Positions 1-53,865 of a stretch of 53,865 nucleotides of DNA are shown piece by piece. The stretch covers positions 1 through 53,865 of IMG/VR virus record IMGVR_UViG_3300029267_001426. The stretch is one strand, 5' to 3'. The position numbers were made by a program, and so were the translations under genes. Origin of the DNA: a virus. The number at the start of each line of letters is the position of its first letter. Position 1 is the first letter of the stretch. Under the pieces are notes generated by a model. That model was not told the DNA's origin. It did no database searches and saw nothing but the letters and a program-made list of their open reading frames with translations.

Positions 1-144
1 AACAGGATGCCCTGGACCAGCTGGCAGCTGAAACCCATCCCAGCCTGGCAGACCTCGCCCTGGCATCCCTTGACCTGGTCAAGGATGACCTGGCCCAGGT
101 CCCTGTCATCTTTGCTGGCCAAGCCCTGGCCACCTTTTCCAAGC
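1..144. repeat. Terminal direct repeat, copy 1 (exact copy of 53722..53865)
   Basis: Bases 1..144 recur exactly as the last 144 bases of the window, giving a unit length of 53,721 bp. The repeat lies inside an ORF, so it reads as the overlap of a circular or permuted assembly. Confidence 0.95.
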
Positions 145-752
145 GTTTTGACATCCCCACTGACACCATTGATGCCTATGCCATTTCAGACAATGTGGCC
201 AGGCTGACTGTGGACCAGGTCTGGCAATTTGAGGCACGCCGAGACATGGCCAAGATGGACATCCATCTGGAATTCTACATGGCCAGCCATTGCATGATCT
301 GTGGCCAGGTCATGTGGTCCTATGTGGACAGCCTTGAATCCATCGGCTATCACATGGCCAACAGAATCCCCTGTCCCCACTGTGCCAGACCTGACAGCCC
401 CTTTGAACCTAACATCACCCTGATGGACCTGGACCAGCTGGCTGCCCTCGAGAACCTAGCAGCCACAGCAGTGGCCCAGCTGACACTGAGACTGGCCAGG
501 GAACAGCTGGCCCTTGAACAGGTCAATGCTGACATCCTGCTGGCTGCTGACTGGGATGGCAAGAATACGCCACTTTGCAAGGCCCAGGCTGTGGCCATCC
601 TTGCTGAAAGTGAACAGGCCCAACAGGCCCAGGACCAGGTCTGGCTGACAGAATGCGAACTGGACCAGGCCAAGGCTGAACAGGCCCACTATGCCCAGAA
701 AGCCCGGCTATACAGGGCCTATCTGGACAGCATGCCCAGGCCCAGAAACTGA
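3..752 (+). CDS. Hypothetical protein, 3' part of a gene that crosses the window junction (5' part is 53622..53865)
   Basis: Frame 3 is open from base 3 and continues in frame from ATG 53622. The joined product is about 283 aa. It has HCMICGQ...CPHC cysteine pairs and then an Ala/Gln-rich coiled-coil-like tail. Stop is TGA 750..752. Confidence 0.7.
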   Translation, partial: QDALDQLAAETHPSLADLALASLDLVKDDLAQVPVIFAGQALATFSKRFDIPTDTIDAYAISDNVARLTVDQVWQFEARRDMAKMDIHLEFYMASHCMICGQVMWSYVDSLESIGYHMANRIPCPHCARPDSPFEPNITLMDLDQLAALENLAATAVAQLTLRLAREQLALEQVNADILLAADWDGKNTPLCKAQAVAILAESEQAQQAQDQVWLTECELDQAKAEQAHYAQKARLYRAYLDSMPRPRN

Positions 753-813
753 CATCACCCAGGGGCATCAGTCCCCACCCACATTGGGGCACAGCCCCCA
801 AGGAGCAAAACAG

Positions 814-1371
814 ATGAAAGAACAGTGTCCGGTCCCCAAGGAAACCCTGGCCCAAGCCAGGATTGAAATCCCCCCTGGTTCCCCCTATGACCGCAACCGC
901 GCCCAGCTGGTGAACAAAGACATGATCCAGGCCAGCCTGGGCCACATGATTGATGAACCGACCACCAGCCCTGTCTGGTTCGGACCCACACCAGTCTGGT
1001 CAGCAGGCATTCACCCTGGCAGCCAGCCCCATGGAACCTTTCTGGGTTTCCAGATGGCCATATTCAATCTGAACACATTCGGCCATGTCCAGATGGCCGC
1101 CATTCAGGCCAATGAAATCTTTGACTGGTCCCAATGGCCTGCCCGGCGTGCCACCTTTGCAGCCCAGCTGGTGTCCAGCTGCCAGACTGCCATTGACCTG
1201 AAAAAGGCCATGCTGACAGACCTGACCAGCCAGCCGCCCAAGACTGTGACCAAACGTTACAAGGAAAGGGTCCAGGCAGCTGAACAGTCTGTCCAGCAGG
1301 CTGAACATAACCTGGCCACCATGCTGGATGTGATGGGGATGTCCCCAGACAAGGATGAATCTGATGACTGA
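814..1371 (+). CDS. Hypothetical protein (185 aa)
   Basis: ATG 814 is preceded by AAGGAG with a 7-nt spacer. The upstream part of track ORF 691..1371 has no RBS and overlaps the previous gene. Confidence 0.65.
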   Translation: MKEQCPVPKETLAQARIEIPPGSPYDRNRAQLVNKDMIQASLGHMIDEPTTSPVWFGPTPVWSAGIHPGSQPHGTFLGFQMAIFNLNTFGHVQMAAIQANEIFDWSQWPARRATFAAQLVSSCQTAIDLKKAMLTDLTSQPPKTVTKRYKERVQAAEQSVQQAEHNLATMLDVMGMSPDKDESDD

Positions 1372-2695
1372 GAAAGCCCAAGACCAGGCCCCTGTGGCCT
1401 TAGTTCAAGTCCAGACCATCTGGGCAGCTGGCAAGGAATTCCCTGACATGGATGCTGCCCTGAGACATCAAGACCAGATGCTGGTGGCCCCCTTTCTGTC
1501 CTACTATGTGAAATGGCGAGCCATGCGGGTTTCCAGGGACAAGAAAAGGGCCTTGGCTGCTGCCTACATTGACAGCCGGGCTGTGATGGACAGGCTTGAT
1601 TATGTGTTCGGGAAAAGGGGCTGGTCCCCCCATTACACTGTGACCCCAAAGGGCCTGATGTGTGACCTGACTGTGACCTGGGCAGATGGCACAGTCACCA
1701 CAAAGTCAGCCCTGGGCCATGCCGGTGGGGGCATTGACATTGGGGAAAAGGGTGATGAATCTGATGCCCTGAAAAGGGCTGCTGTGGTCTATGGTGTGGG
1801 GCGCTATCTTTACAGAATGCCCAGCCCCTGGGTGGACTATGATGACCGAGCCAAGCGGCTGACCAGGCTGCCCCCCTTGCCTGACTGGGCTGACCCCAAA
1901 GGGGACCCCACAGCTGATGGCGCGCCCCCTGTGGGTTATGCCCCAGAACCTGAACCTGACACCACAGAGGCCCCCAAGCCAGAACCCCAGACCAGGCAGC
2001 CTGCCAGGCAGACCAGGCAGCCCAGAACCCCTGGGGAAAGCCAGCCGGCTGCTGGCCAGGAAATCCTGACTGCTGGGTCCAAGACAGGGGAACCCCTGGC
2101 CACACCCATCCAGGACCTGGCCATCTGCAAGGTCACTGATGAAAGACCACTGCCTGGCAATTGGAAACTTTTCTACGAAATGGCCCTGGGTGGCAAGTAT
2201 GGTGAATATGCTGCCCAGCCCCATGTGGTCAATGCAGTCAGGCAGTATTTCCCTGGGTTCAACCGGCGTGGCAAGAACAGGCAGAATGTCAGCATTCACC
2301 AGGCATGGTCTGTGATCCTGTTCAGGACCTTGACTGAAACCCAGCAGGCCACTGTCATGGCATCTGCCAGCCAGTCCATCCAGAAAGGTGTCCCCCAGGA
2401 ACCTGAACAGGATGACCTGGATGAAACCAAGGGCAAGCCTGAACAGCAGGCCAAGGCTGGTGGGGATGCCCACTGGGCTGACCAGGAACACCCAGACAAT
2501 CAGCTGGTCAGCTGGTTCCAAGTCTTGGGCCTGATGGACCTGTCCCCAGCTGTGGCTGTCCATGACGGTCTGGGGACAGCCACCCTGCTGGACTATTCTG
2601 GGACCTTTGACCAGGCCATCACTGCCTTGATGGAAAAATGGCCTGAAAAGGCCAAGGCAATGGAAAAGAAACTGGCTGCCCAGTCCCAGAACTAG
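1364..2695 (+). CDS. Rad52/Rad22-family single-strand annealing protein
   Basis: Contains AYIDSRAVMDRLDYVFG...SDALKRAAVVYGVGRYLY, the signature of Rad52-like phage annealases, followed by a Pro/Gln-rich low-complexity tail. The start is ATGACTGA, overlapping the upstream stop. An alternative ATG is at 1355. Confidence 0.8.
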   Translation: MTEKAQDQAPVALVQVQTIWAAGKEFPDMDAALRHQDQMLVAPFLSYYVKWRAMRVSRDKKRALAAAYIDSRAVMDRLDYVFGKRGWSPHYTVTPKGLMCDLTVTWADGTVTTKSALGHAGGGIDIGEKGDESDALKRAAVVYGVGRYLYRMPSPWVDYDDRAKRLTRLPPLPDWADPKGDPTADGAPPVGYAPEPEPDTTEAPKPEPQTRQPARQTRQPRTPGESQPAAGQEILTAGSKTGEPLATPIQDLAICKVTDERPLPGNWKLFYEMALGGKYGEYAAQPHVVNAVRQYFPGFNRRGKNRQNVSIHQAWSVILFRTLTETQQATVMASASQSIQKGVPQEPEQDDLDETKGKPEQQAKAGGDAHWADQEHPDNQLVSWFQVLGLMDLSPAVAVHDGLGTATLLDYSGTFDQAITALMEKWPEKAKAMEKKLAAQSQN

Positions 2696-2719
2696 GGCAG
2701 ACAAGCTGAGAAAGAACAG

Positions 2720-2758
2720 CCGCCATCCCCCTGGGCACAGCCTGGGCAGGGATGGCGG
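2720..2758 (+). terminator. Stem-loop after the annealase gene (10-bp arms ccgccatccc / gggatggcgg)
   Basis: A perfect 10-bp inverted repeat with a 19-nt loop lies 25 nt after the stop. There is no U-tract, so terminator function is uncertain. Confidence 0.4.
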
Positions 2759-2800
2759 TAGAGCGAGCAGCCCCACTGGGGCAGAAAGGTCAGGATCAAG

Positions 2801-3706
2801 ATGTTTGTGGCTTTTGATATTGAAATCACTGCTGGGGTCCATGGGCCAGACTGGTCCATTTTTCGCCCCTATGGCATCAGCTGTGCTGCCACCAAAGTGG
2901 ACGATGAACCAGTCAAGGTCTGGCATGGGGATGGGGACAAGCTGACCCTGCCTGGAATCACCCATCCAGAAAGGATGACCCCAGGCCAAGTGGCTGAACT
3001 GGCCAGCTATCTGCTGAGCATGACCCACTGTGGTCACAGGGTGGTCACTTGGAATGGCTTGGGCTTTGATTTTGACGTCTTGGCCGAGGAAAGCCGGAAC
3101 CCCAAGCTGGCCAGGGAAATCTGTGAACTGGCCCTGAACCACATAGACCTGGGGTTCCTGATGCGCTGTCAGCTGGGGTTCATGGCCAAGCTGGTCAAGG
3201 TGGCCCAGGGCCTAGATGTGGGCAACAAGACCGAGGGCATGCATGGTGGCCTGGCCCCTGTGCTGTGGACTGGAAACTGGCCAGACATCCAGGATGAACA
3301 GGACCTGGCCGAGCTCCGCGCCCAGGTCCAGGCATTGGCCCTGGCCCAGGGGGCTGGGTTCATGCCAGGCAATAGGATGGCCCAGGACCTGGTCTGTGAA
3401 TATGTGGGCCAGGATGTGATCCTAACCATGGATGTGTGCCAGGCCCTGATTCAAAGACGATCGGTTAACTGGATCACTGGCAAGGGGACCCCATCACAAA
3501 GACCCTGGCGCCCGACCATGGCCAAGACAGGCATGGGTCCCAGACCACTGCTGGCCAGGGAATGTCTGGCCAAGGTCCAGGAACCAAACACCAGCTGGAT
3601 GACAAACGCACCCAAGCCCAGGGAATCCTATTATGAATGGATGAAACCCCATCTGGGGACCTATAACCTGGCCATGGCCCTGACTGGCCAGCCCCTGGCA
3701 GACTAG
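2801..3706 (+). CDS. DnaQ-like DEDDy 3'-5' exonuclease
   Basis: Exo I is FDIE, Exo II is WNGLGFDFDVL and Exo III is EYVGQDV (YxxxD), in canonical order. RBS is AGAAAGG upstream of the ATG. Confidence 0.7.
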   Translation: MFVAFDIEITAGVHGPDWSIFRPYGISCAATKVDDEPVKVWHGDGDKLTLPGITHPERMTPGQVAELASYLLSMTHCGHRVVTWNGLGFDFDVLAEESRNPKLAREICELALNHIDLGFLMRCQLGFMAKLVKVAQGLDVGNKTEGMHGGLAPVLWTGNWPDIQDEQDLAELRAQVQALALAQGAGFMPGNRMAQDLVCEYVGQDVILTMDVCQALIQRRSVNWITGKGTPSQRPWRPTMAKTGMGPRPLLARECLAKVQEPNTSWMTNAPKPRESYYEWMKPHLGTYNLAMALTGQPLAD

Positions 3707-3721
3707 CAGAAAGGGAACCCG

Positions 3722-4630
3722 ATGACAAGCATGACCATGGCAATCAAGCCATACTGGAAACCAGAACCCAAGGCCCCAGACAAAGACTGGCTGGCCCCAC
3801 TGCTGAAAAAGTCCCTGTGGGTATCAGGCACAGGCTGGGCCATCTATGGGGTCTTTGCCTTTGCCTTTCAGGACATTGATGTCATCCCTGGCTGGCTACA
3901 GTCAGCCCTGGTGATCTTGGGGTCTGCCCTGATTGTCATCGGCGCTGAAATGAACACTGCCCCCACCAGTGTGGCTGTGTTCAGGAAACTTGGGGCAGGA
4001 AAGGCCCACTGGCTGGATGTGGCTGCCCTGCTGCTGTCCTTTGTGGGGTCCATCTTTTCTGCCCTGCTGACATTCTCAGCCAGACAGACACTGCTGGGGG
4101 AACAGGGCTGGCGCGCGTGGATGCTGGCCAAGGGTCCCATCTTTGCTGGTGTGGCCACAGCTGCTGACTATTATGCTGCCACAGCTGAACTGGGCCTGTT
4201 ATCTGCTGACTATGAAAGGGACATGGAAACCTGGCTGGCAGGGAAAGCAGAATGGGAACAGGCCCAGCTGCCCCAGCTGCCTGCCCATGTCGACGATGAC
4301 CAAGCCTGGCAGCCCAGGACAGCCCCCTTGGCCCTGCTGGCAAGCATCCTGGGGATTGAACTGACTGATGAAATGATGGACGCCTTGTCAGCTGCTGACC
4401 CATCAGTCCAGGACTATGCTGAACTCGAGGTGGACCCCAGCTGGCCCACAGGGGACCTGGATGACCTGAAAGTCATCATTGGCAGGCTGAATGGCCAAGG
4501 GGCCACCATCACCAGGGGGCAGCTTGAACAGGAATTCATCAAGATGGAAAGGCAGCCCCCCAGCCTTTCCACCATGAAACGATATGTGAAAAGGGTCCAC
4601 AAGGCCAGCAGGGATGCTGCCCATGTCTGA
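3722..4630 (+). CDS. Multi-pass membrane protein, unknown function
   Basis: RBS AGAAAGGGA lies 5 nt before the ATG. There are at least four hydrophobic segments in the N-terminal 150 aa and an acidic C-terminal half. Confidence 0.7.
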   Translation: MTSMTMAIKPYWKPEPKAPDKDWLAPLLKKSLWVSGTGWAIYGVFAFAFQDIDVIPGWLQSALVILGSALIVIGAEMNTAPTSVAVFRKLGAGKAHWLDVAALLLSFVGSIFSALLTFSARQTLLGEQGWRAWMLAKGPIFAGVATAADYYAATAELGLLSADYERDMETWLAGKAEWEQAQLPQLPAHVDDDQAWQPRTAPLALLASILGIELTDEMMDALSAADPSVQDYAELEVDPSWPTGDLDDLKVIIGRLNGQGATITRGQLEQEFIKMERQPPSLSTMKRYVKRVHKASRDAAHV

Positions 4631-5000
4631 CCAGCCAGAAAGACTGCTGAGACTGCCCGAGCCCAGGCCCCCAACGCCCACCAGCTATCTGGGTGGGTCT
4701 GGGCCTGACACTGACACTGGCTGTGACCTCTTGGGCCAGGCTGCCCTGATTGTCTTGGCCATCTGTGTCCTGGCTGTGGTAGGAATGACCCTGGCCACTG
4801 AAATCAGGGACAGGGTGGCCTGGTCCACTTGCCAGGCTGCTGGCTTTGACGATGTCTGGGTCAGCAGACAGGCATGGTGTGTCCAGGCTGACCCATTCAT
4901 CCTGGTCCCCATTGACCAGGTCATTGGGCAAGTGGATGGGCTGAACCCAGGCTGGATGCCTGGCAGACAGCCAGAAAGGAATGGTGATCAAGATGCCTGA
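4623..5000 (+). CDS. Small membrane protein (125 aa)
   Basis: The start is ATGTCTGA, overlapping the upstream stop. There is one hydrophobic helix (AALIVLAICVLAVVGMTLA). Confidence 0.6.
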   Translation: MSDQPERLLRLPEPRPPTPTSYLGGSGPDTDTGCDLLGQAALIVLAICVLAVVGMTLATEIRDRVAWSTCQAAGFDDVWVSRQAWCVQADPFILVPIDQVIGQVDGLNPGWMPGRQPERNGDQDA

Positions 5001-5424
5001 AACACCAGACACAGTCATCACTGGTGGGGGCAGAGGTTCAGGGGTCAGGGAATTGATATTCCGTGGCGAAAGGACGAACCCGAAAGCTGTCATGGCCCAG
5101 ACTGGGGCCTTTGCCCTGGCTGGGGCCTTGATGACCTGGCTGATAGTGGCCATCATAATGGTCTGGGTCCCCAGGCCCTGGGCCTGGCTGGGTGACCACT
5201 GGCGATGGCCAGTCACCATCAGCCTGGTCAGTGGGGTCATAGGGGCAGCCATCCTGGGCCATGTCATGTTCATTGAAAGCTATGATCCCATGCATCCAGG
5301 GGCCAGACAGCCACTGAACACATCCAAGCCAGTTTTCCCCTGGACCAAAGAAAAGGCGCGCTGGCCTGAAATGCCAGCAGCAGAAAGGCTGCCAGATGTG
5401 GAATCTTATGATCTGGATTCTTAG
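4993..5424 (+). CDS. Small membrane protein (143 aa)
   Basis: The start is ATGCCTGA, overlapping the upstream stop, with AGAAAGGA 12 nt upstream. There are two hydrophobic helices. Confidence 0.6.
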   Translation: MPETPDTVITGGGRGSGVRELIFRGERTNPKAVMAQTGAFALAGALMTWLIVAIIMVWVPRPWAWLGDHWRWPVTISLVSGVIGAAILGHVMFIESYDPMHPGARQPLNTSKPVFPWTKEKARWPEMPAAERLPDVESYDLDS

Positions 5425-6763
5425 GGTCATCCTTGTGGGCCTTGGCCTGGCAGCCTTGACCTGGCTGGGGTCCATGGCCTGGGATGTGATCTTTCTCAGA
5501 ATGCGCCGCTGGCAGATTCACCAGGTCAAGCTGGGGGCCTTAAGGCACAAGGCTGCCATGGCAGCATTCAAACAGCTGGCCACTGACCCCAATGGGCGTG
5601 GTGGCTGGGTCTTGACGTCCACTGGGGACATCTTGCATGACCTGGACAGCCCAGCTGAAAGAATCCTGCTGGCAGCCAGCAGGGCCAGCAGGGCCACCCA
5701 GGCCCAGGTCCTGAACCAAGACCCTGAACTGGTGGACCCTGACCCTGTGCCCCAGCTGCCAGAATACTTGCCATCAGACAAGGTCATCAGGGGCCAGCAG
5801 CTGACCTATAGGTCCCTGATTCTGGGCCAAGGCCCTGATGGCCTGGTCCAGGCTGGGATGGACAAGCTGGTCCACTTGGCTGTGGGTGGGTCCAGTGGCT
5901 GGGGGAAATCAATGATGCTCCGCTGGGTGGCCTATCAGCTGGCCAAGTCTGTGGACATGGTTCAGCTGGCCCTGGTGGACCTTGAGGGTGTCACCCTGGC
6001 CCCCTTTGAAACCTGTGCAAGGACCCTGTGGCCAGTGGCTGAAAGTGGGGCTGGGGCCTTGAGGCTGGCCCAGGCCCTGACTGATGAACTGGACCACAGG
6101 AAAGACCTTTTTACCCAGTTCAGGGACCAAGGTGTTGACAGCCTGGCTGCCTATAACAGCCTGGCTGACCAGCCCTTGTCCCCAATTGTGCTGATCGCCG
6201 ATGAAATGTCAGCCCTGTTGGAGGATGCCAAGGTTGTGGATGCTTTCAGGCCCTTGATCTTTAGGTCCAGGAAATATGGAATCTGGAATGTCTGGGGCGG
6301 CCAAGACTGGAAAGCTGGCACGATGCCCACAGCAGTCAGGAACCAATTCAGCAGCCGCATGCACTTTCATGCCATGTCCAGCAGCCAGTCCAGGGTCTTG
6401 CTGGGAATGCCTGGGGCTGAACACTTGACCACAGCTGGCAGGGCCTTGGCTGTTCTGCCCGGGCGGCCGCCGATTGAATTTCAGGCCCCCATCTTGGGTG
6501 ACAATGACATCAGGTCCATCATAGGAAATGGCCCAGTCAATGACTGGCCAGACTGGCATCCCCCTGGGGGCTGGGACAATGCTGCTGATGAATGGGATGC
6601 TGAACAGGCCACCCTATATGACCAGGTCAAGGATGCCCTGGCTGCTGGGGCTGACAACCCCACTGCCATCTGTAGACATCTTAAGATGTCAGCTGGTGGT
6701 CAGAACTGGTATAAAATCAAAGACATCCTGGCCACCATCCAGGAAATGGAACCCAGGGCCTAG
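5396..6763 (+). CDS. FtsK/SpoIIIE-family DNA translocase-like ATPase, membrane anchored
   Basis: N-terminal TM helix, Walker A GGSSGWGKS, Walker B IVLIADE, and RKYGIWNVWGGQ. A C-terminal segment (LYDQVKDALAAGADNPTAICRHLKMS...) looks like a winged helix. RBS is AGAAAGG. Confidence 0.8.
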   Translation: MWNLMIWILRVILVGLGLAALTWLGSMAWDVIFLRMRRWQIHQVKLGALRHKAAMAAFKQLATDPNGRGGWVLTSTGDILHDLDSPAERILLAASRASRATQAQVLNQDPELVDPDPVPQLPEYLPSDKVIRGQQLTYRSLILGQGPDGLVQAGMDKLVHLAVGGSSGWGKSMMLRWVAYQLAKSVDMVQLALVDLEGVTLAPFETCARTLWPVAESGAGALRLAQALTDELDHRKDLFTQFRDQGVDSLAAYNSLADQPLSPIVLIADEMSALLEDAKVVDAFRPLIFRSRKYGIWNVWGGQDWKAGTMPTAVRNQFSSRMHFHAMSSSQSRVLLGMPGAEHLTTAGRALAVLPGRPPIEFQAPILGDNDIRSIIGNGPVNDWPDWHPPGGWDNAADEWDAEQATLYDQVKDALAAGADNPTAICRHLKMSAGGQNWYKIKDILATIQEMEPRA

Positions 6764-6767
6764 TCTA

Positions 6768-6828
6768 CTACTCCTTACCCTGGCCCCTTACAGGGCAGGA
6801 ACAGGCCCCTGGGGCCTGTAAGGAGTAG
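6768..6828 (+). terminator. Compound stem-loop after the FtsK-like gene
   Basis: 11-bp arms ctactccttac / gtaaggagtag enclose an inner palindrome caggcccc-t-ggggcctg. There is no U-tract. The CCGACCAAG motif and the next RBS follow immediately. Confidence 0.4.
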
Positions 6829-6857
6829 ACCGACCAAGACAGAAAGGGAAACCAAAG

Positions 6858-7331
6858 ATGAAAAAGACCAAGAACATGACCCTGCTGCTGGCAATTCTGA
6901 TGGCTGTCCTTGTGGGGGGCTGTGTCCCGACTCAGCCCAAGCCAAGTGAATTGGCCATGGCAAGCATAGTGGCCCAGCAAGAAATGGCCAAGGCCCAACA
7001 GGCCCAGGCCGAGACAGACCAGGCAGCCTTTGACCTTTTGACCTTTGTGGCTGCCCAACAGAATGAACTGGCTATGGAAATCGCCCAGACCAATTCCTAT
7101 GTCACCAAAGAAACCACTGATGCCTTGCTGGCCCTGGCACTCGAGGAACACCAGGCCAGGGTGGAATGGCGTGAATACTGGCAGACCATTGGCTATGTTA
7201 TCCTGGCCATCACATTCATCACCCTGTTCATCTTGCTACTGATAACATGTGAGGACCCAGGCTGGCTGCCCCGGCGTCTGGGCAAAAGGACAGTCACTTA
7301 CAGGGTCAGGGGGCAAGATGACCCCAGCTGA
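6858..7331 (+). CDS. Lipoprotein with C-terminal TM helix
   Basis: The signal peptide ends in the lipobox LVGGC. RBS is AGAAAGGGA. The middle is coiled-coil-like and the C terminus has the hydrophobic segment IGYVILAITFITLFILLLI. Confidence 0.75.
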   Translation: MKKTKNMTLLLAILMAVLVGGCVPTQPKPSELAMASIVAQQEMAKAQQAQAETDQAAFDLLTFVAAQQNELAMEIAQTNSYVTKETTDALLALALEEHQARVEWREYWQTIGYVILAITFITLFILLLITCEDPGWLPRRLGKRTVTYRVRGQDDPS

Positions 7332-7620
7332 ACAGGAAATCCAGGCTGCCCAGGCCAGGGCAAAAAAGGCCCTGGTCAGGCCCCTGGGCATTGACCCTGA
7401 TGCCAAGAATCCCAGGCTGCTGGACATCAAGCCTGACCCTGACAAGGTCCTGGCTGAGATTCACACCGACCTGTGGTCAAGTCTGTGGTCAGCCTGTGGC
7501 AGAAATCCTGACCTGGTCAAACAGGTCATGGCTGCCCTGGCTGACCCTGATGTGGTCCACATCACAGTCACTGCTGAAAGGGCTGACATCATGATTGAAC
7601 AGGATGTGGACCATGTCTGA
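7318..7620 (+). CDS. Hypothetical protein (100 aa)
   Basis: This is the first ATG that clears most of the upstream gene, overlapping it by 14 nt. The upstream part of track ORF 7249..7620 lies inside the lipoprotein gene. Confidence 0.55.
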   Translation: MTPAEQEIQAAQARAKKALVRPLGIDPDAKNPRLLDIKPDPDKVLAEIHTDLWSSLWSACGRNPDLVKQVMAALADPDVVHITVTAERADIMIEQDVDHV

Positions 7621-8428
7621 AACAAGCAGACCATTCAGGGTTCTGGCCTGGGGCTGTGGGGTTCAGTCCACCCTATTGGGTGAACTGTCAGCCAGGGGCA
7701 TCATTGAAAAGGTGGACCTGATTCTGTCTGCTGACCCTGGCTGGGAAAGGGCCATCACCTATCAGATGCGCGACTGGTATGCTGCCCGATGGGAAAAGAT
7801 GGGCATGAAAGTGGTCATAATGCCCAAGGATGACATCAAGGGCAAGGGGGCACGGGACCATATTCATATACCTTTCTGGACCAGCACAGGGGGACCACTT
7901 ACCAGGCAATGCACAAGGGCTTTTAAGATTCGCCCCATGCGTCGATGGCTCAGAACCCATCTGGGCTTTCCCCCTGACAGGCCCCCACATCCCCCAGCTG
8001 GGGCCATTGAACAGTGGATGGGCATCACCACAGATGAATGGACCAGGGCCAAGCCATCCAATGTTCAATATGTGATCCACAGATGGCCCCTACTAGAACA
8101 AAGAATGTCCAGGGCTGACTGTGAACAGACATTCATCAGCCTGGGGCTGCCTGTGCCCATCAAGTCTGCCTGTGTCTGCTGCCCCTACCGCAGACCCACA
8201 GAATGGCTGGACATGATTGACACAGCCCCAGATGAATGGGCTGATGCTGTGGCCTTTGACCAGGCCAACAGAAAAAACCCACTGGACAGCAAAGCTGATG
8301 AACTGTTCATCTATAGGGGGGACCAGGTCCCCCTGGACCAGGCAGACCTTGATCATGATGCCAGCCGAGAACGCAGGCTGGGCAGGGTCCACATGTTTGC
8401 CTGTGAATCTGGCTTGTGTGGAGTGTGA
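7613..8428 (+). CDS. PAPS reductase-like (PP-loop superfamily) protein
   Basis: The N-terminal AWGCGVQST sits at the PP-loop position, followed by ADPGWE, then WMGITTDEW and the C-terminal PLLE...GLPVP..SACVCCPY, as is typical of phage PAPS-reductase family proteins. The start is ATGTCTGA, overlapping the upstream stop. Confidence 0.7.
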   Translation: MSETSRPFRVLAWGCGVQSTLLGELSARGIIEKVDLILSADPGWERAITYQMRDWYAARWEKMGMKVVIMPKDDIKGKGARDHIHIPFWTSTGGPLTRQCTRAFKIRPMRRWLRTHLGFPPDRPPHPPAGAIEQWMGITTDEWTRAKPSNVQYVIHRWPLLEQRMSRADCEQTFISLGLPVPIKSACVCCPYRRPTEWLDMIDTAPDEWADAVAFDQANRKNPLDSKADELFIYRGDQVPLDQADLDHDASRERRLGRVHMFACESGLCGV

Positions 8429-8430
8429 AC

Positions 8431-9072
8431 ATGAACTGGCCACCAGGGACCATATTCAAAACAGCCTTGGGCATCACTGTGGGTGACCAGGTCAGCACAG
8501 AATATGACTCTGGCCCCTACCGGGTCAGGTTCATCAATGGGCCAGTCTACTGGCAGGAAATCAATGACATAATCATCAGGACCTGGCCAGTGGTTCATCT
8601 GGCCTGCTGTTCCCTTGAATCTGTGGAGGTGTGCGCCTATCTGGGGGCCATCAGGCAAGCTGAGAATGGCCACTGGTATGCTGATGGTGGGGATGAAATC
8701 TTTGTGACCCCAGACCCTGACCACCATCCCCAGCTGGTGGACATGTTTGATTCCTATCCTGTGGCCGAGCCATACCAGTTCAAGGATGGTGTGGACTATA
8801 CCAGGGTCAGGGGCTGCTGGCATTGCCGCCGCTGTGGGGATTTCAATGCCCCTGAACAGCATCCCAGATGTAATGTGGTCAGCTGCCCGACCTGTGGCCA
8901 GTCATCCCAGCTGGTGATCCTGATGCCCCCCAGGGTCATTGGGACCTGGCAGCATAATGCCTACTACTATGAAACCAATTATGGCAAGGTCTGGCCAGGC
9001 CATGTCACCTATGGCCAGGCCCTGCCTGAAATACACAATTTCCGCAAGGACAAGCCCTGGGGGCCAGTGTGA
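8431..9072 (+). CDS. Hypothetical protein with Zn-ribbon (CWHCRRC...CPTC)
   Basis: GGAG lies 7 nt upstream of ATG 8431, just after the upstream stop. Confidence 0.6.
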   Translation: MNWPPGTIFKTALGITVGDQVSTEYDSGPYRVRFINGPVYWQEINDIIIRTWPVVHLACCSLESVEVCAYLGAIRQAENGHWYADGGDEIFVTPDPDHHPQLVDMFDSYPVAEPYQFKDGVDYTRVRGCWHCRRCGDFNAPEQHPRCNVVSCPTCGQSSQLVILMPPRVIGTWQHNAYYYETNYGKVWPGHVTYGQALPEIHNFRKDKPWGPV

Positions 9073-33787: not shown

Positions 33788-34203
33788 CAGAAATCCACTG
33801 TGATCAAGGGGCTGCCCTTGATGTCCACTTGGGTTCTTTCAGTGTATAGGCCAAGTAGCTTGGCCTCGTCTTGTAAGATTCTCAGCTTGAATTCTGGGTC
33901 CTGGCTTTTGCGTCTCAGTTCTCGCCGGGCTGCTATGGCCTGGCCTAGTGCCGACACCATGCATTCATCTGTTATTTCAGCCAGCCTGGCCCTTGCCTTG
34001 TATATGTAATTTCTGGCCTGCCTGTGCCCCAGGTCCCATTCTTTGGAAATAAAAGGAACCAGGGCCTGGTCATCCCAGCCATCACATATCAGCTGAAAGA
34101 CAGTATTGATCCGCTTGGCCAATTCCCCATTGGTGGCCCTTTTTTTCTTGGGCTGGTCCTGGTCCTTGCCCTTGCCCTTGTCCTTGTCAGCCATTGCCCC
34201 CAT
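33787..34203 (-). CDS. terS: Terminase small subunit
   Basis: 138 aa with a basic N terminus and a helical DNA-binding-like core (RQARNYIYKARARL). It lies immediately upstream of terL. Confidence 0.65.
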   Translation of the reverse strand: MGAMADKDKGKGKDQDQPKKKRATNGELAKRINTVFQLICDGWDDQALVPFISKEWDLGHRQARNYIYKARARLAEITDECMVSALGQAIAARRELRRKSQDPEFKLRILQDEAKLLGLYTERTQVDIKGSPLITVDF

Positions 34204-34206
34204 CCA

Positions 34207-34941
34207 TCACTTGATGGCCACCCAGCCACAGAAATTCATCCACCTCCAGAAACAGTCAACAGCCCTGAACCCAGCCTGGGTCAGCAGCTGTTCATTCCAG
34301 GCAGCTGTCACAGGGACCAGGACCCCTGACAGGGCCAGCCGCTTTCTTTCAATGTCATCCTGGGAATAGCCATTCTGGGCCTTGAATCCGTGGTATAGGT
34401 CCACCATCAGGCCATTGACCTGGGCAGTGGCCCCCAGGACCTTTTCCACCAGGATGAATGCCCCACCATCTTGCAAGCTGTCATAGACGTCCTGGACCAG
34501 CTGCTGTCTACATTCCAGGGGGACAAACATCATAGTCAGGATGGACTGGATGACACTGGCCATGCAAGGGGGGAAATCCTTGGCCAGGTCCAGGTCCTTG
34601 ATTCTGACACAAGGGCTGGGGCCATCCACAAAGCCCCCAAAACGATCGCGCAAGACGTCAAGCATAGGGGGGCTGGTTTCCACCAGGACAAAGCTGTTGG
34701 TCATTCCCCACAGGTCCACCAGGGGGGCAATGCTGGCCCCTCGACTAGCCCCCAGGTCCACTATGTCAGTGTGGGGCATCCTGAACCTGACAGCCAGGTC
34801 ATAGCATGCGCGCCGCATCACATCCAGCTGGGGGATGGACCTGGCCAGCATGTCATCAAAAACCTGGGTGACCTGGTCATCAAAGGCCCAGCGGTCTGGA
34901 CTGTAGCCTGTGTCAGTTGGGTGATCCTGTGAATGATCCAT
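34207..34941 (-). CDS. cmoA: CmoA-like carboxy-S-adenosylmethionine (Cx-SAM) synthase
   Basis: 244 aa, collinear end to end with E. coli CmoA as I recall it: WAFDDQVTQVFDDMLARSIPQ, motif I VDLGASRG, FILVEK, YHGFKAQNGYSQDDIERKR, and C-terminal WMNFCGWVAIK. The start at ATG 34941 comes after the upstream TAG. The longer track ORF is rejected. Confidence 0.8.
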   Translation of the reverse strand: MDHSQDHPTDTGYSPDRWAFDDQVTQVFDDMLARSIPQLDVMRRACYDLAVRFRMPHTDIVDLGASRGASIAPLVDLWGMTNSFVLVETSPPMLDVLRDRFGGFVDGPSPCVRIKDLDLAKDFPPCMASVIQSILTMMFVPLECRQQLVQDVYDSLQDGGAFILVEKVLGATAQVNGLMVDLYHGFKAQNGYSQDDIERKRLALSGVLVPVTAAWNEQLLTQAGFRAVDCFWRWMNFCGWVAIK

Positions 34942-34954
34942 TGATCCTGTCCCC

Positions 34955-36358
34955 CTATGCCTGGACCCCTGAAAAGGCCCTGATGAATTCTGCCCTATAG
35001 AATCGGGCTGGACTGGGCAGTCTGTTTCTGATGGCAGCCTTGATGCCCATCCCATCCTGGAAAGCCAGCTTGGGCCTTTCACAGATGTGGTCAGGCAGAA
35101 TGCCCCTATAGGCCAGGGACAGGACTGCCTTTTCCTTTTCGTGCTCAGCAGGCCCCCTGACAGCTGCCCTGGAAAGGCCCAGGGCATACTGAACCAAGCC
35201 CTGGGACAAAAAGGGTAGTCTACATTCTACACCATAGGCCATGAATGCTTTGTTAGCCCTGGCGAAATTTTTCCTATGCTGCCCCAAGAAAAGGCCCCGC
35301 CGATAGGCATGCCAGCCAGATGAAATGACCCCATGATAGCTGAAACCATAGCTGGCCCACAGTTCGTCTGAACCCTCCCCAGAATAGGTCACCTTGAACC
35401 CATCCTGGGCCATGGCCTTGGCCAAGTGTAGGCAGGGCCAGCCAATTTCCACTTGGGCCTTGTGGGGCATTTCAATGATCTGGACCACCCTGGCCAGGTC
35501 ATCCCTACCAGGGCAAGGGACTGGGATTTCTTTCAGATGGACACCCAGCTGGCCGCAGATGTGCCGAGCAGCAGCCAGGTCCTTTGAATGGGGATTATAG
35601 ACAGCAGTATAGGCAGTCACATCCCTGAAATGCTGGACCAGATGCCATAGAACAGCCGATGAATCAATGCCCCCAGAAATCAGGCAGCAGACAGGGACAT
35701 CAGACAAGGTTCTGGCCAGGACCCCATCCTTGACCAATGTCTTGACCTGGACTGATGCCTGGACCAGGTCATCTGGCAGCCTGCCTGGCTGAATCTCAGC
35801 AAAGGGCCTGGCAATCATCCCATCCTTGTGGGCAGACACCACATAGCCAGGCTGAACCCAGGAAACAGACCTGGGATGGCAGCCCATGGCCAGCAGGGCC
35901 TTGATTTCAGATGCAAAGCAGAAAGGCTGCTGCTGGCTGATGTGGACTGGGATTTCCCCAAAGATGTCCCTGGCCACAAAGACCTGGCCATCTGCCCAGG
36001 ACCAGGCCATGGCAAACATCCCATCAAACTTGGGCAGGGCATCCAGGCCCCATTCATTCAAAGCCGCGGCTATAATCTCAGTGTCCCCAGTGGTCCTGAA
36101 CTGGTGGCCGAGCTCGAGCAATTCAGCCTTGATCTGGGCACAGTTCCACAGTTCCCCATTATAGACCAGGTCCAGGCCATCCCTGTGGAATGGCTGGTCT
36201 GACCTGGGCAAGGGGTCCAGAATAGCCAGCCTGGTGGCCCCCAGAAAGGCTGACCCAGACTTGACCAGCCCCTGGCCATCAGGCCCCCTGTGGACCAAGG
36301 CAGCCATGCCCTGTAGGGTGGCCTTTTCTGACCTGAACCCGCCGACTATACCACACAT
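34955..36358 (-). CDS. Asparagine synthetase B-type glutamine amidotransferase / amidoligase (as a separate gene from the internal ATG)
   Basis: MCGIVGG (Ntn Cys2), HRGPDGQG, RLAILD, YNGELWN, GMFAMAW, PP-loop CLISGGIDSS and YSGEGSDELW. AAGGTGG lies 7 nt before ATG 36358. Confidence 0.7.
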   Translation of the reverse strand: MCGIVGGFRSEKATLQGMAALVHRGPDGQGLVKSGSAFLGATRLAILDPLPRSDQPFHRDGLDLVYNGELWNCAQIKAELLELGHQFRTTGDTEIIAAALNEWGLDALPKFDGMFAMAWSWADGQVFVARDIFGEIPVHISQQQPFCFASEIKALLAMGCHPRSVSWVQPGYVVSAHKDGMIARPFAEIQPGRLPDDLVQASVQVKTLVKDGVLARTLSDVPVCCLISGGIDSSAVLWHLVQHFRDVTAYTAVYNPHSKDLAAARHICGQLGVHLKEIPVPCPGRDDLARVVQIIEMPHKAQVEIGWPCLHLAKAMAQDGFKVTYSGEGSDELWASYGFSYHGVISSGWHAYRRGLFLGQHRKNFARANKAFMAYGVECRLPFLSQGLVQYALGLSRAAVRGPAEHEKEKAVLSLAYRGILPDHICERPKLAFQDGMGIKAAIRNRLPSPARFYRAEFIRAFSGVQA

Positions 36359-37522
36359 CAGACAGCCACCTTGGCCAGGACCTGGTCCCTGATCGCCGAT
36401 GCAAGATGGCACATCATAAGGGGGGGGGACTGCCCTGCCCAGCCTTTCCCATCGCTTATTATAGGACCCTGTCAGCTGGAAATCTGCTGGGAAAGAACAG
36501 ATGGCCATCACTTCTGGGATGGTAAACTTGCGCCGCCTGGGGGATGTGGGCTGGCCAGCCTGGTCCTGGTCCCTTTCTATGTATAGATGGCCTGGGCCTG
36601 CCTGCCTGACTGTGGGGGCTGGCCTGCTGGTGAAATCCCCCATGCCCCAGCTGCCCCCTGTGTCCTCGATTGCCCGGACAGTCCCAGCCAGGGCATCAGC
36701 CACAGTATAATAGTAGGGCAAGGGGCTGGGCCAGGCATGGTCCACATCCAGGTCATCCCTGATGCCCTGGAAAAATAGCCTTTCCCTGGACTGGGGGACA
36801 CCCAGCCACTGGGCATCAAGTTTGACCACCTTGACCCTATAGCCGCAATCTTTCAGCAGGGCCAGAATCTGCAAGAAATAACCCTTGGCCTTGCCCCTGA
36901 CCAGCCCTGGGACATTCTCAGCCAAGAATACCTTGGGCCTGATGCCCTTGACCAGCCTGGCATATTCCCAGAACAGGTCATCTGTTCTTTGCTGGGTGTC
37001 AGAATATGCTTTCACCTTGCCCCAGTCCTTTTCCCTGTGGCCAATGACTGAAAAGGACGCACATGGGGGGCTGCCATCCATCAGGTCAAGGTCACCCTGC
37101 CCCAGGCCGATGGCATCAAGGATTTCAGCAGCTGTGACCTGTCTGATGTCCCTGGTGTCAAGGATGCTGCCTGGGTGATTCAGCCTGTAGACCTCTTGGG
37201 CAGCTGGGACAAATTCATTGGCCCATAAGACCTTGAACCCAGCCATGCGCAGGCCGAGACAAGAACCACCAGCCCCAGAAAAGGTGGAAATGGCCCTGAA
37301 CCCATTCCAGGGGACCTGTTCAATGTCTGCCATGCTGGGCAGCTGGTATGGTGGCTTGAATGTCCTGTCTTTTCCAGGCACTATTTCACCCTCTAGCCAA
37401 TAGTGTGATAGATTGTCCCCACAGATGCCCCCAGCCAAGATGGCTGGGCTGGGCTGTCTGTCCAGGTCAAAACGCTCCACCATGGGTGTCATCCCATTGG
37501 GGTTATGGTGACAAAGAATCAT
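34955..37522 (-). CDS. Continuous ORF as assembled: C5-cytosine DNA methyltransferase-like domain fused in frame to the AsnB-like domain
   Basis: There is no stop between the two halves in the given sequence. ATG 37522 is in an ATGA overlap with the ParB-like gene. Alternative starts are 37540 and 37333. The fusion depends on the 9-nt homopolymer at 36420..36428. Confidence 0.6.
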   Translation of the reverse strand: MILCHHNPNGMTPMVERFDLDRQPSPAILAGGICGDNLSHYWLEGEIVPGKDRTFKPPYQLPSMADIEQVPWNGFRAISTFSGAGGSCLGLRMAGFKVLWANEFVPAAQEVYRLNHPGSILDTRDIRQVTAAEILDAIGLGQGDLDLMDGSPPCASFSVIGHREKDWGKVKAYSDTQQRTDDLFWEYARLVKGIRPKVFLAENVPGLVRGKAKGYFLQILALLKDCGYRVKVVKLDAQWLGVPQSRERLFFQGIRDDLDVDHAWPSPLPYYYTVADALAGTVRAIEDTGGSWGMGDFTSRPAPTVRQAGPGHLYIERDQDQAGQPTSPRRRKFTIPEVMAICSFPADFQLTGSYNKRWERLGRAVPPPYDVPSCIGDQGPGPGQGGCLMCGIVGGFRSEKATLQGMAALVHRGPDGQGLVKSGSAFLGATRLAILDPLPRSDQPFHRDGLDLVYNGELWNCAQIKAELLELGHQFRTTGDTEIIAAALNEWGLDALPKFDGMFAMAWSWADGQVFVARDIFGEIPVHISQQQPFCFASEIKALLAMGCHPRSVSWVQPGYVVSAHKDGMIARPFAEIQPGRLPDDLVQASVQVKTLVKDGVLARTLSDVPVCCLISGGIDSSAVLWHLVQHFRDVTAYTAVYNPHSKDLAAARHICGQLGVHLKEIPVPCPGRDDLARVVQIIEMPHKAQVEIGWPCLHLAKAMAQDGFKVTYSGEGSDELWASYGFSYHGVISSGWHAYRRGLFLGQHRKNFARANKAFMAYGVECRLPFLSQGLVQYALGLSRAAVRGPAEHEKEKAVLSLAYRGILPDHICERPKLAFQDGMGIKAAIRNRLPSPARFYRAEFIRAFSGVQA
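36358..37522 (-). CDS. C5-cytosine DNA methyltransferase-like enzyme (predicted carboxymethyltransferase). The stand-alone form needs an 8-nt homopolymer.
   Basis: Motifs: I FSGAGGSCLG, IV SPPCASFS, VI LAENVPG, VIII QSRERLF, IX RKFTIPEVMAICSFPADF and X LGRAVPP. With one C fewer the C terminus reads AVPPLMMCHLASAIRDQVLAKVAV and stops at TGA 36358..36360. Confidence 0.6.
36420..36428. repeat. G9 (C9 on the coding strand) homopolymer inside MTase motif X
   Basis: This is the longest G/C run I saw in the window. It encodes the PPP of GRAVPPP. Confidence 0.9.
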
Positions 37523-38124
37523 CTGGGCTGCCCAGACCATTCATAGCCACAGCTGGGGCATCTGTAGTCTGTTTCCAGTTCATCACCATATTCCTGAAAG
37601 GCCTCTGGGGCCTGGTCCTGTTCAGCCAGCCGCCGAAAAAGGGCCAGGTCATCAGTGTCCACTGTCACAGGCAGCTGGTCTGCTGTGTTCAAGGTTTCCA
37701 AGAACTGGGCATAATTGGCATCATAGACCCTGCTGATGTCCAGCTGGGTGACATCCCCACCAGCCATGACCAGGCTGTTGTGATCGATGCTATAGGCCCA
37801 GGCAGCATGTTCACTGGCAGCATCCACACCAAAGATGACCGGGACTGCCCAGTCATCAGATTCCTGTTCAAGCAAGATGCCCCTGGGCACAGGGTCCCCC
37901 TGGCCTTTCATCCAAGTCAGGGCCTGGATTCTGCCATTGCCAGCCACTATGCCACCCTTGCCACCATTCAGGGTGGGTTCCCACTTGGGTGGGTCCTTGA
38001 ACCCATGCCGCTTGATTGAATCAATTATGGAACCAAGGTCATGCAGTTTGACATTCTGGGCAAACAGCAGGCATGTGGCAAGTGGGACATATTCAAGGCG
38101 CAATTTCTCAGCAGGGCTGGACAA
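37519..38124 (-). CDS. ParB N-terminal (ParB/Srx-like nuclease) domain protein with C-terminal Zn-ribbon
   Basis: LRLEYVPLATCLL...NVKLHDLGSIIDSIKRHGF...VAGNGRIQAL matches the ParB-like fold pattern. TTG start 7 nt after AAAGGA. The C terminus has CPSCGYEW. Confidence 0.7.
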   Translation of the reverse strand: MSSPAEKLRLEYVPLATCLLFAQNVKLHDLGSIIDSIKRHGFKDPPKWEPTLNGGKGGIVAGNGRIQALTWMKGQGDPVPRGILLEQESDDWAVPVIFGVDAASEHAAWAYSIDHNSLVMAGGDVTQLDISRVYDANYAQFLETLNTADQLPVTVDTDDLALFRRLAEQDQAPEAFQEYGDELETDYRCPSCGYEWSGQPR

Positions 38125-38540
38125 GTGGTCATCCTTTCGAGTGTGGCAGCCATCCTGGTCAGATTGACCACTGTGACATGGGCTGTGCCCTTGTATGTGG
38201 CCAGGGCTGTTGGGGCATCAAGAATGATGGGCTGGGTGGGGTCTAGGTCTACTCTGTAGGGTGAATCTGGGCCAAGGTTCCCAGAATCAAGGGCTGTGGC
38301 AAAAAAAGGGGCAGCCCCCTGGGGCAGGGCCAGAATCTTTTCCCGACAAGACCACCAGGTCTGGCCTGGGGGCAGGGCCACCCAGGGCTGGGCTGCCAGC
38401 TGCTGTTCTGTATAGTAGTATGAATGGACCCCATCTGAACAGTATAGGGGATTGCCCCTGTGGGGTTCTAGATCATAGGTGGTTCCCATCCCTGTGACAG
38501 AAAAGATGGCCATCAGGGTCAGGATGATTGATTCCATCAT
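38025..38540 (-). CDS. Secreted protein with DPBB/3D-like (RlpA/MltA-type) cell-wall-binding or lytic domain
   Basis: Signal peptide MMESIILTLMAIFSVTG, then ...VALPPGQ...FFATALDSGNLGP...YRVDL. The 3' end overlaps the ParB-like gene by 100 nt in another frame. The start was chosen at M65 of the track ORF. Confidence 0.45.
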   Translation of the reverse strand: MMESIILTLMAIFSVTGMGTTYDLEPHRGNPLYCSDGVHSYYYTEQQLAAQPWVALPPGQTWWSCREKILALPQGAAPFFATALDSGNLGPDSPYRVDLDPTQPIILDAPTALATYKGTAHVTVVNLTRMAATLERMTTCPALLRNCALNMSHLPHACCLPRMSNCMTLVP

Positions 38541-53629: not shown

Positions 53630-53865
53630 ACCGACCAAGACGGATGAATCCACTGCCCAGGCCCCTGTGGCAGACCTGGACCAGCAGGCCGCTGATGCTG
53701 CTGCTGATTTCCTGGCTGCTGAACAGGATGCCCTGGACCAGCTGGCAGCTGAAACCCATCCCAGCCTGGCAGACCTCGCCCTGGCATCCCTTGACCTGGT
53801 CAAGGATGACCTGGCCCAGGTCCCTGTCATCTTTGCTGGCCAAGCCCTGGCCACCTTTTCCAAGC
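53622..53865 (+). CDS. 5' part of the junction-spanning hypothetical gene (continues at base 145 of the unit, i.e. feature 3..752)
   Basis: ATGACTGA overlap with the RHH gene stop. The frame is open to the window end, and the last 144 nt are the terminal repeat. Confidence 0.7.
   Translation, partial: MTEPTKTDESTAQAPVADLDQQAADAAADFLAAEQDALDQLAAETHPSLADLALASLDLVKDDLAQVPVIFAGQALATFSK
53722..53865. repeat. Terminal direct repeat, copy 2
   Basis: Exact copy of 1..144. Confidence 0.95.

Follow-up and report, generated by a model that had tools for sequence, protein, structure and literature searches.

The viral DNA record IMGVR_UViG_3300029267_001426 of IMG/VR (53,865 nucleotides, analysed at its full length and referred to here as the window) encodes a protein resembling DNA cytosine-C5 methyltransferases with an arginine at motif X, where canonical enzymes that use S-adenosyl-L-methionine (SAM) have an asparagine. 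This arginine very probably belongs to a DNA cytosine-C5 carboxymethyltransferase of the CmoX family, the leading enzyme of a phage cassette for DNA hypermodification that comprises three genes (cmoX, cmoY and cmoA) and lies behind a ParB-like gene. Strong homology to characterised enzymes makes the first two steps of the proposed pathway highly likely, namely the synthesis of carboxy-S-adenosyl-L-methionine (Cx-SAM) by CmoA and the transfer of its carboxymethyl group to DNA by CmoX.

The family was named CmoX by Yang et al. (Nat Commun, 7 Dec 2025; PMC12783734). SpCmoX from Synechococcus phage S-B43 uses Cx-SAM supplied by a phage CmoA to carboxymethylate C5 of cytosine within GC motifs, and in its 1.9 Å structure with Cx-SAM, R350, which replaces N304 of M.HhaI, touches the carboxymethyl group (PMC12783734). 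The wild-type enzyme works with Cx-SAM only and does not accept SAM, and the R350N variant accepts neither cofactor (PMC12783734). SpCmoY, an asparagine synthetase-like protein, ligates glycine to the carboxylate (PMC12783734). The same study listed 5,615 candidates with SPPC and the arginine, reported cmoA near most of them and ParBc proteins often adjacent, and pointed out the parallel between the CmoX arginine and the engineered N374K form of M.MpeI, a methyltransferase (PMC12783734).

The idea of a cofactor switch through arginine in place of asparagine is already published, and the window enzyme is one more member of the CmoX family. A first-pass annotation of the window had proposed a natural DNA carboxymethyltransferase on the strength of the M.MpeI N374K precedent. 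Its account of that precedent, a switch to Cx-SAM rationalised by a salt bridge to the cofactor carboxylate, is borne out by the literature (PMC12015181), and the proposal itself is supported by alignment and by the biochemistry of SpCmoX, published in December 2025 (PMC12783734). Its expectation that an arginine-to-asparagine change would revert the enzyme toward SAM use is contradicted in the case of SpCmoX, since R350N is dead with both cofactors (PMC12783734).

The motif X arginine and its structural equivalents

Translation agrees with the annotated reading of the AGG codon at 36434..36436 of the minus strand as the arginine of G-R-A-V, and positions 36434..36439, which had been noted earlier, hold the glycine and arginine codons of motif X (Table 1). 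The residue is R350 in the 374-residue CmoX and R369 when counted from the ATG at 37540. The protein matches PF00145 (DNA_methylase) with E = 6.5e-49, with motif X near the end of the domain, and the SPPC motif is invariant in both homolog alignments made (A1 and A2). All of the best 120 of 5,937 database homologs have the arginine, with the consensus 'ERxGR[AS]VPP'; judging from these sequences, the arginine is no chance substitution.

The equivalence of the arginine to N374 of M.MpeI had been flagged in the first-pass annotation as an inference, and the phmmer and MAFFT alignments now place the arginine in one column with this residue and the pocket asparagines of other C5 methyltransferases. 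Among PDB sequences the best phmmer match to window CmoX is 8YF3 (SpCmoX; E = 3.9e-57), and at this column ERLGRAVPPLMM of the window stands against ERVGRMVPPLMM of SpCmoX (R350), the asparagine of 'MIGNAVP' in HaeIII and N304 of 'FGNSV' in HhaI. When the C-terminal fragment of 59 residues was used alone, the arginine aligned to the asparagine of 'GNAVPP' in a plant MET1-type DNA methyltransferase 1; M.MpeI did not surface in the PDB search with these 59 residues only. The sequence and numbering of M.MpeI were taken from PDB 8C56/4DKJ, an M.SssI sequence serving purely as the bait query. In the recovered sequence N374 is the asparagine of 'AGNSIPV' and Q136 directly follows the catalytic cysteine, a numbering that agrees with the pairing of M.MpeI Q136A/N374A with M.HhaI Q82A/N304A in the literature. 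The MAFFT column holds M.MpeI N374, SpCmoX R350, the window arginine and the asparagines of two close natural homologs. Printed alignments of HaeIII, HhaI, 3G7U, MET1 and M.MpeI have asparagine at motif X, whereas window CmoX has arginine and lacks the G-N-[SA]-[VI] signature of canonical SAM-dependent C5 methyltransferases.

The likeness to SpCmoX extends to the rest of the cofactor pocket. The SpCmoX residues F25, E47, F48 and D69, the SPPC and ENV motifs and the RxR arginines are all kept in the window CmoX alignment. An AlphaFold2 model of CmoX was built with a predicted local distance difference test score (pLDDT) of 83.5, and its closest fold in Foldseek is 8YF3, a Cx-SAM-bound DNA cytosine-C5 carboxymethyltransferase (template modelling score 0.75, E = 1e-25), followed by HaeIII and HhaI. 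The engineered enzymes M.MpeI N374K and M.MedI N377K also have a cationic side chain at the position of the motif X asparagine and use Cx-SAM, but they are CpG methyltransferases with an engineered lysine, some remaining SAM activity and a low kcat (PMC12015181). Unlike them, window CmoX is natural, has arginine and belongs to a family apparently committed to Cx-SAM; it is only 25% identical to them.

The first ~38 residues of CmoX (37369..37483) form an N-terminal extension, RFDLDRQPSPAILAGGICGDNLSHYWLE, similar to the variable region's P-x-P-T-I motif. The extension is common to an asparagine-type homolog (L093, Table 1), in which it reads RVDLDTNPAPTIVATGLGCYHYHLE.

Co-variation of the arginine with cmoA

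The first-pass annotation had suggested that a cationic residue at motif X should co-vary with a neighbouring cmoA, and this is the pattern observed. We surveyed 93 IMG/VR loci encoding CmoX relatives, the open reading frames (ORFs) of which were searched with the window proteins; one partial match (L013) was set aside. These loci are not phylogenetically independent, and no probability is given for the counts. Arginine occupies the motif X position in 88 of the 93, two of which have A-R instead of G-R. A CmoA-like ORF was detected by iterated jackhmmer in every one of the 88 arginine loci, nearly always immediately downstream, as against none of the four loci with asparagine, leucine or methionine, over 4.5-10 kb of downstream sequence. 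Arginine-type homologs lacking a cmoA neighbour, which the annotation had named as evidence to the contrary, were thus absent from the 88 loci. An initial phmmer search with the window CmoA had left seven arginine loci without a match, and jackhmmer found a CmoA-like gene in all seven. In the divergent CmoA-like clade, TIGR00740 was the best NCBIfam family in six examples.

Both asparagine-type homologs, L089 and L093, share 56% identity with the window protein and read 'WERLGNSVPP' at motif X. In L089 and in the leucine-type L092 the methyltransferase gene lies directly before terminase genes, and ParB-like genes are still found upstream of the methyltransferase in the asparagine, leucine and methionine homologs. 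The ParB-like protein of the window matches PHROG 620 ('ParB-like partition protein', E = 4.9e-10) and has no direct Pfam match. Its jackhmmer family lies upstream of the methyltransferase in 88 of the 93 loci, whether of the arginine or the asparagine type, and the member in L089 matches PF02195 (ParB_N, 2.8e-10).

The partner enzymes CmoA and CmoY

The annotation had placed cmoX two genes upstream of a CmoA homolog, and the product of that gene indeed matches both E. coli CmoA and TIGR00740. It aligns full length, over residues 17-244, with E. coli CmoA (PDB 4GEK, E = 4.1e-28), and it is 27% identical to the biochemically validated SpCmoA (E = 5e-23). The K-R pair at residues 198-199 of E. 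coli CmoA is kept, and we take R199 to be the residue that binds the Cx-SAM carboxylate. As in the E. coli CmoA/CmoB pathway to uridine 5-oxyacetic acid (cmo5U), in which CmoA makes Cx-SAM from SAM and prephenate, Cx-SAM would serve as the donor; the acceptor would be a DNA cytosine reached through a C5-methyltransferase and not a tRNA uridine reached through CmoB. A partial scan of the window, covering 25 ORFs, gave no CmoB-like match.

Two groups can be distinguished among the CmoA-like proteins of phages. The window protein belongs to the one that is close to bacterial CmoA (TIGR00740 at 1e-40 to 1e-44; for example, L024 5743..6477). The other is divergent, with ~220 residues, the pattern 'HVREQLPWYDL...EKELSLxGVQRP' and TIGR00740 matches of only 1e-12 to 1e-16, as in L014 (1316..1987), L062 (3317..3967) and L044 (1632..2327).

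CmoY resembles glutamine-dependent asparagine synthetases. GATase_6/7 domains are present, and the protein matches GATase_7 (1.5e-27), Asn_synthase (9.4e-36) and TIGR01536 (4.6e-76; 256.9 bits, just under the cutoff of 267.1). Among PDB entries it matches E. coli AsnB (1CT9) with E = 2e-39 over both domains, the second-best match being the hydroxyamidotransferase 7YLZ. The glutaminase motifs Cys2, HRGPD, RLAILD, NGELWN and GDTEI and the pyrophosphatase loop (PP-loop) are present and align to AsnB. Both proteins combine an N-terminal nucleophile (Ntn) glutaminase, with its N-terminal cysteine, and a PP-loop ATP pyrophosphatase; CmoY is ~90 residues shorter, and its presumed acceptor is a DNA-borne carboxylate, whereas that of AsnB is aspartate. 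SpCmoY, with 271 residues and no glutaminase domain, aligns only to the synthetase half (window residues 211-358, 28% identity over 162 residues). With 467 residues and a glutaminase domain, the window CmoY does not belong to the glycine-ligating class of synthetase-only proteins of ~270 residues, and its domain architecture, an AsnB-like glutaminase joined to an AMP-forming ligase domain, and adjacency to cmoX place it in the glutamine-amidase class, that of the cluster of A0A7T0Q3R0 (PMC12783734). The glutaminase-bearing type is present in 25 of the 93 surveyed loci.

Between the window and the characterised S-B43 cluster, the likeness covers the presence of cmoA and an asparagine synthetase-like ligase beside cmoX and, in CmoX itself, the C5-methyltransferase fold, the SPPC nucleophile, the motif X arginine and the cofactor-binding residues listed above. 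The two differ in gene order, which is cmoA-cmoY-cmoX in S-B43 and parB-cmoX-cmoY-cmoA, adjoining terminase genes, in the window, and in the partner ligase, which in the window is of another class than SpCmoY. The closest isolated phage for the cassette is Streptomyces phage TurkishDelight (genes 121-125, MW291017), whose cassette is uncharacterised. Its methyltransferase is 61% and its GATase/Asn-synthase protein 49% identical to the window proteins, and its gene order, ParB, (ParB), methyltransferase, amidotransferase and CmoA-like methyltransferase, is the same as that of the window. A megablast search of positions 34000-38200 against 50,697 phage records gave no match.

Fusion of cmoX and cmoY at a C9 tract

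In the window, a homopolymer of nine cytosines fuses cmoX in frame to cmoY, which results in an 861-residue ORF (37540..34955) in which GATase and Asn_synthase domains come after a DNA_methylase domain. With one C fewer, CmoX ends in GRAVPPLMMCHLASAIRDQVLAKVAV, and the TGA that follows overlaps the ATG of 'MCGIVGG...' as TGATG; this ATG of cmoY lies at 36358, and the same type of overlap occurs in relatives. The C-terminus in the C8 frame aligns residue for residue with '...GRMVPPLMMKAIAENIYKEVLSK' of SpCmoX and fits the 'GR[AS]VPPxMM' ending of all the best 120 homologs, none of which is fused. In related loci the start codon of the amidotransferase gene overlaps the methyltransferase stop by 1 or 13 nucleotides, the two being always in different frames.

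Over 7,404 nucleotides the JGI contig Ga0180432_10003414 (3300017989; L100) differs from the window only in having C8 in place of C9, and it has separate genes for proteins of 374 and 467 residues, the latter being exactly the CmoY of the window. Because this C8 allele lies on an otherwise identical contig and the homologs are unfused, the biological unit is two genes, cmoX and cmoY. A natural CmoX-CmoY fusion as the general state was rejected, as there is no fused homolog and the C8 allele exists. A fused product of 842 residues was called on three ENA short-read (k141) contigs of 50-200 kb, one of which equals the window at 100% over 14.2 kb. An assembly error, a genuine allele and a site of slippage are all conceivable explanations of the C9 tract.

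Proposed pathway and alternative explanations

In the proposed pathway, CmoA would convert SAM and prephenate to Cx-SAM, as homology to E. coli CmoA and SpCmoA suggests. CmoX would then flip a cytosine out of double-stranded phage DNA, Cys141 of SPPC would attack C6, and the carboxymethyl group of Cx-SAM would be moved to C5 to yield 5-carboxymethylcytosine, with the motif X arginine pairing with the extra carboxylate of the cofactor. The flip, attack and transfer were shown for SpCmoX by crystal structure and assays (PMC12783734), and we infer the same mechanism here because every cofactor-contacting residue aligns with SpCmoX. CmoY may adenylate the carboxylate and amidate it with glutamine-derived ammonia, giving 5-carbamoylmethylcytosine; no mention of carbamoylmethylcytosine was found in the literature searched. 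The modification would presumably shield phage DNA from host nucleases.

Several points weigh against this scheme. Window CmoX is only 35-41% identical to SpCmoX, and its target-recognition region (between motifs VIII and IX) is shorter than those of SpCmoX and the TurkishDelight methyltransferase, so that the GpC specificity of SpCmoX is not to be assumed for it. TIGR00740 is by far the best family of the window CmoA (1.2e-40), but the score of 139.6 bits lies below the curated cutoff of 193.3; the protein is best regarded as a divergent phage CmoA and not as the bacterial equivalog. For the glutaminase-bearing class of CmoY, the use of glutamine-derived ammonia was predicted by authors who did not obtain a soluble enzyme (PMC12783734). 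The amide product is likewise a prediction, which the domain content of CmoY moderately favours. In addition, the C9 frameshift drops the C-terminal helix of CmoX (pLDDT >90 in the model) and buries the N-terminal cysteine of CmoY; should C9 be real, the window copy may lack activity.

The C5-methyltransferase motifs of CmoX are otherwise canonical and the close asparagine homologs L089 and L093 belong to the same clade, which would suit an ordinary SAM-dependent enzyme that makes 5-methylcytosine and merely tolerates arginine, with CmoA doing something unrelated, for example making tRNA cmo5U or depleting SAM. We consider this very improbable, as wild-type SpCmoX does not use SAM, the co-variation of arginine and cmoA is perfect and the partial ORF scan revealed no CmoB-like partner for a tRNA pathway. 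A doubt of another kind concerns the last step. CmoX may make 5-carboxymethylcytosine while CmoY joins a molecule different from ammonia to it, for example glycine or some other amine, or uses its glutaminase domain for another purpose; the sole characterised CmoY ligates glycine (PMC12783734), and AsnB-like variants, for instance the hydroxyamidotransferase 7YLZ, transfer other nucleophiles. This appears rather unlikely given that SpCmoY, which lacks a glutaminase domain, aligns to the synthetase half only, that window CmoY keeps the N-terminal cysteine and all glutaminase motifs, and that the ammonia prediction for the glutaminase-bearing class comes from the discoverers of SpCmoY themselves (PMC12783734).

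It is also conceivable, though doubtful, that the C9 frameshift is real and marks a disabled or recoded allele. CmoX would then lack its last helix and be fused to CmoY, the Ntn glutaminase of which requires its N-terminal cysteine to be free, and the cassette would be off, or would need +1 slippage, ribosomal or transcriptional, along the C run or a fusion that processes itself. The fused product on three ENA contigs, including the one identical to the window over 14.2 kb, and the fact that the tract is the longest homopolymer of the genome are consistent with a real allele. The JGI contig with C8 and two normal genes argues otherwise, as does the absence of fusions among the 120 homologs and the related loci, with their stop/start overlaps in different frames. 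The ENA and JGI assemblies may moreover share related or even the same samples, and the difference between C8 and C9 may be an artefact of assembly or consensus.

Genome context and an apparently swappable modification locus

Positions 1..144 and 53722..53865 of the window form an exact direct terminal repeat of 144 bp, and the name of a near-identical ENA contig (53,862 bp) is of the MEGAHIT 'k141' style. Both observations taken together suggest that the assembly was closed into a circle; the repeat is probably its overlap, and the window likely represents a complete genome of ~53.7 kb. The large terminase is ~25% identical to those of Arthrobacter phages, and the isolated backbone relatives are only distant. 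A search of IMG/VR with the portal protein yielded a single relative at 44% identity. Backbone relatives with portal proteins 50-54% identical to that of the window were found via a larger protein collection, and L102-L105 among them are from the same series of JGI/ENA accessions. At the same site, upstream of terS, terL and the portal gene, the backbone relatives have other DNA-modification cassettes (Table 1). This site has the look of an exchangeable modification island, at which the lineage swaps whole cassettes.

Table 1. Coordinates of the cassette genes and motifs in the window, of homologs without arginine at motif X, and of the cassettes at the same site in backbone relatives.
Sequence	Feature	Position	Strand	Remarks
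Window	ParB-like protein, 201 residues	37519..38124	-	Zinc-ribbon-like CxxC end at the C-terminus; immediately upstream of cmoX
Window	cmoX, putative DNA cytosine-C5 carboxymethyltransferase	36358..37483	-	374 residues in the intact C8 allele; frame broken here by one extra C
Window	CmoX motif IV, S-P-P-C	37061..37072	-	Catalytic cysteine C141 (374-residue numbering); aligned to SpCmoX S95-P96-P97-C98
Window	CmoX motif X, G-R-A-V	36428..36439	-	GGC 36439..36437, AGG 36436..36434, GCA 36433..36431, GTC 36430..36428
Window	C9 homopolymer (G9 on the plus strand)	36420..36428	-	Longest homopolymer in the window; directly after GRAV-PP
Window	cmoY, AsnB-like glutamine-dependent amidotransferase/ligase, 467 residues	34955..36358	-	N-terminal Ntn glutaminase (M-C-G-I-V-G-G) and PP-loop synthetase domain
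Window	CmoY PP-loop, SGGIDSS	35657..35677	-	
Window	cmoA, Cx-SAM synthase homolog, 244 residues	34207..34941	-	Two genes downstream of cmoX
L089	CmoX homolog, Asn at motif X	565..1644		
L093	CmoX homolog, Asn at motif X	7095..8615		
L092	CmoX homolog, Leu at motif X	949..2004		
L012	CmoX homolog, Met at motif X	7035..8135		
L102/L103	Three TET-associated glycosyltransferases and radical-SAM/SPASM proteins	2189..8417		
L104/L105	N6/N4-methyltransferase-like protein and B12-binding radical-SAM enzyme fused to a methyltransferase-like domain	4105..8606 (L104)		
L106	AdoMet_dc-like gene	4879..8296		

CpG depletion and motif avoidance

The window is extremely poor in CpG, with 652 observed against 4,366 expected occurrences (observed/expected 0.15) at 57% G+C. 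The ratio lies between 0.10 and 0.24 in every 3-kb bin, takes values of 0.28, 0.09 and 0.13 at codon positions 1-2, 2-3 and 3-1, and is accompanied by TpG/CpA at 1.63. Arginine is mostly encoded by AGG or AGA, and the arginine codon of motif X is AGG because the genome is CpG-depleted.

Other short, non-palindromic motifs are also avoided very strongly, whichever strand or frame is considered. GAG/CTC stands at 0.16 of what a first-order Markov model predicts, and GAAG/CTTC was counted 14 times against 481 expected. Avoided 6-mers (observed/expected) include GGGCCC (0/107), AGGCCT (2/84), CACCTG (1/37), ACCTGC (0/31) and CACCCC (0/36). The bias extends to the proteins: glutamate makes up 4.2% of residues, and the dipeptides Glu-Gly, Glu-Ala and Glu-Val occur at 0.32-0.39 of expectation. 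Restriction avoidance is the obvious candidate cause of the avoidance of short motifs. Avoidance of internal Shine-Dalgarno sequences was rejected as the cause of GAG depletion, because GAG and CTC alike are scarce in every frame of the coding strand of 21 genes, and both are low when the plus strand of the full window is counted.

A host-wide dinucleotide signature was judged an unlikely source of the CpG depletion, as the backbone relatives, two of them from the same JGI/ENA accession series, have CpG ratios near 1.0. Their values are 0.97-1.04 for CpG and 0.83-1.0 for GAG; the absence of GGGCCC is shared with the window, and the depletion of GAAG is milder. The CpG ratio ranges from 0.28 to 1.73 in CmoX-bearing relatives. 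TurkishDelight, unlike the CpG-poor window, has a ratio of 1.04 in the 5.7 kb examined, at 73% G+C.

One explanation, which we regard as speculative and improbable, is that the depletion is a footprint of the phage's own modification. CmoX, whose target-recognition region is unusually short, would then be a natural CpG-specific carboxymethyltransferase, and (carbamoyl)carboxymethylated cytosines would deaminate to T. This reading draws on the uniformity of the depletion, the TpG/CpA value and the absence of depletion from backbone relatives with other cassettes. A comparison with S-B43 lends weak support to the notion that a target can be read from depletion. In positions 60000..109999 of S-B43 (L107), the phage with the GpC-modifying CmoX, the GpC ratio is 0.57 versus 0.78-0.82 in the related cyanophages S-SM2 (L108) and Bellamy (L109), and the CpG ratio is 0.48 versus 0.58 and 0.61, respectively; the 50-kb segments compared are non-orthologous, and as to a lack of CmoX, S-SM2 and Bellamy are absent from the first 30 tblastn matches. 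If the footprint explanation is true, the target dinucleotide of CmoX would be readable from the phage's own dinucleotide statistics.

Implications for phage DNA modification

Relative to the published members of the family, the new elements here are the glutaminase-bearing CmoY, the C9 frameshift fusion and the extreme CpG depletion. The window phage, or the intact C8 allele on Ga0180432_10003414, represents another enzyme source for the glutaminase-bearing CmoY. The natural asparagine, leucine and methionine variants without cmoA provide a ready comparison set for the further changes that accompany the cofactor switch, a set that is relevant because R350N alone kills SpCmoX. More generally, one residue in the pocket turns a DNA methyltransferase to carboxy-SAM, a switch of which phages make use by means of an enzyme borrowed from tRNA modification.

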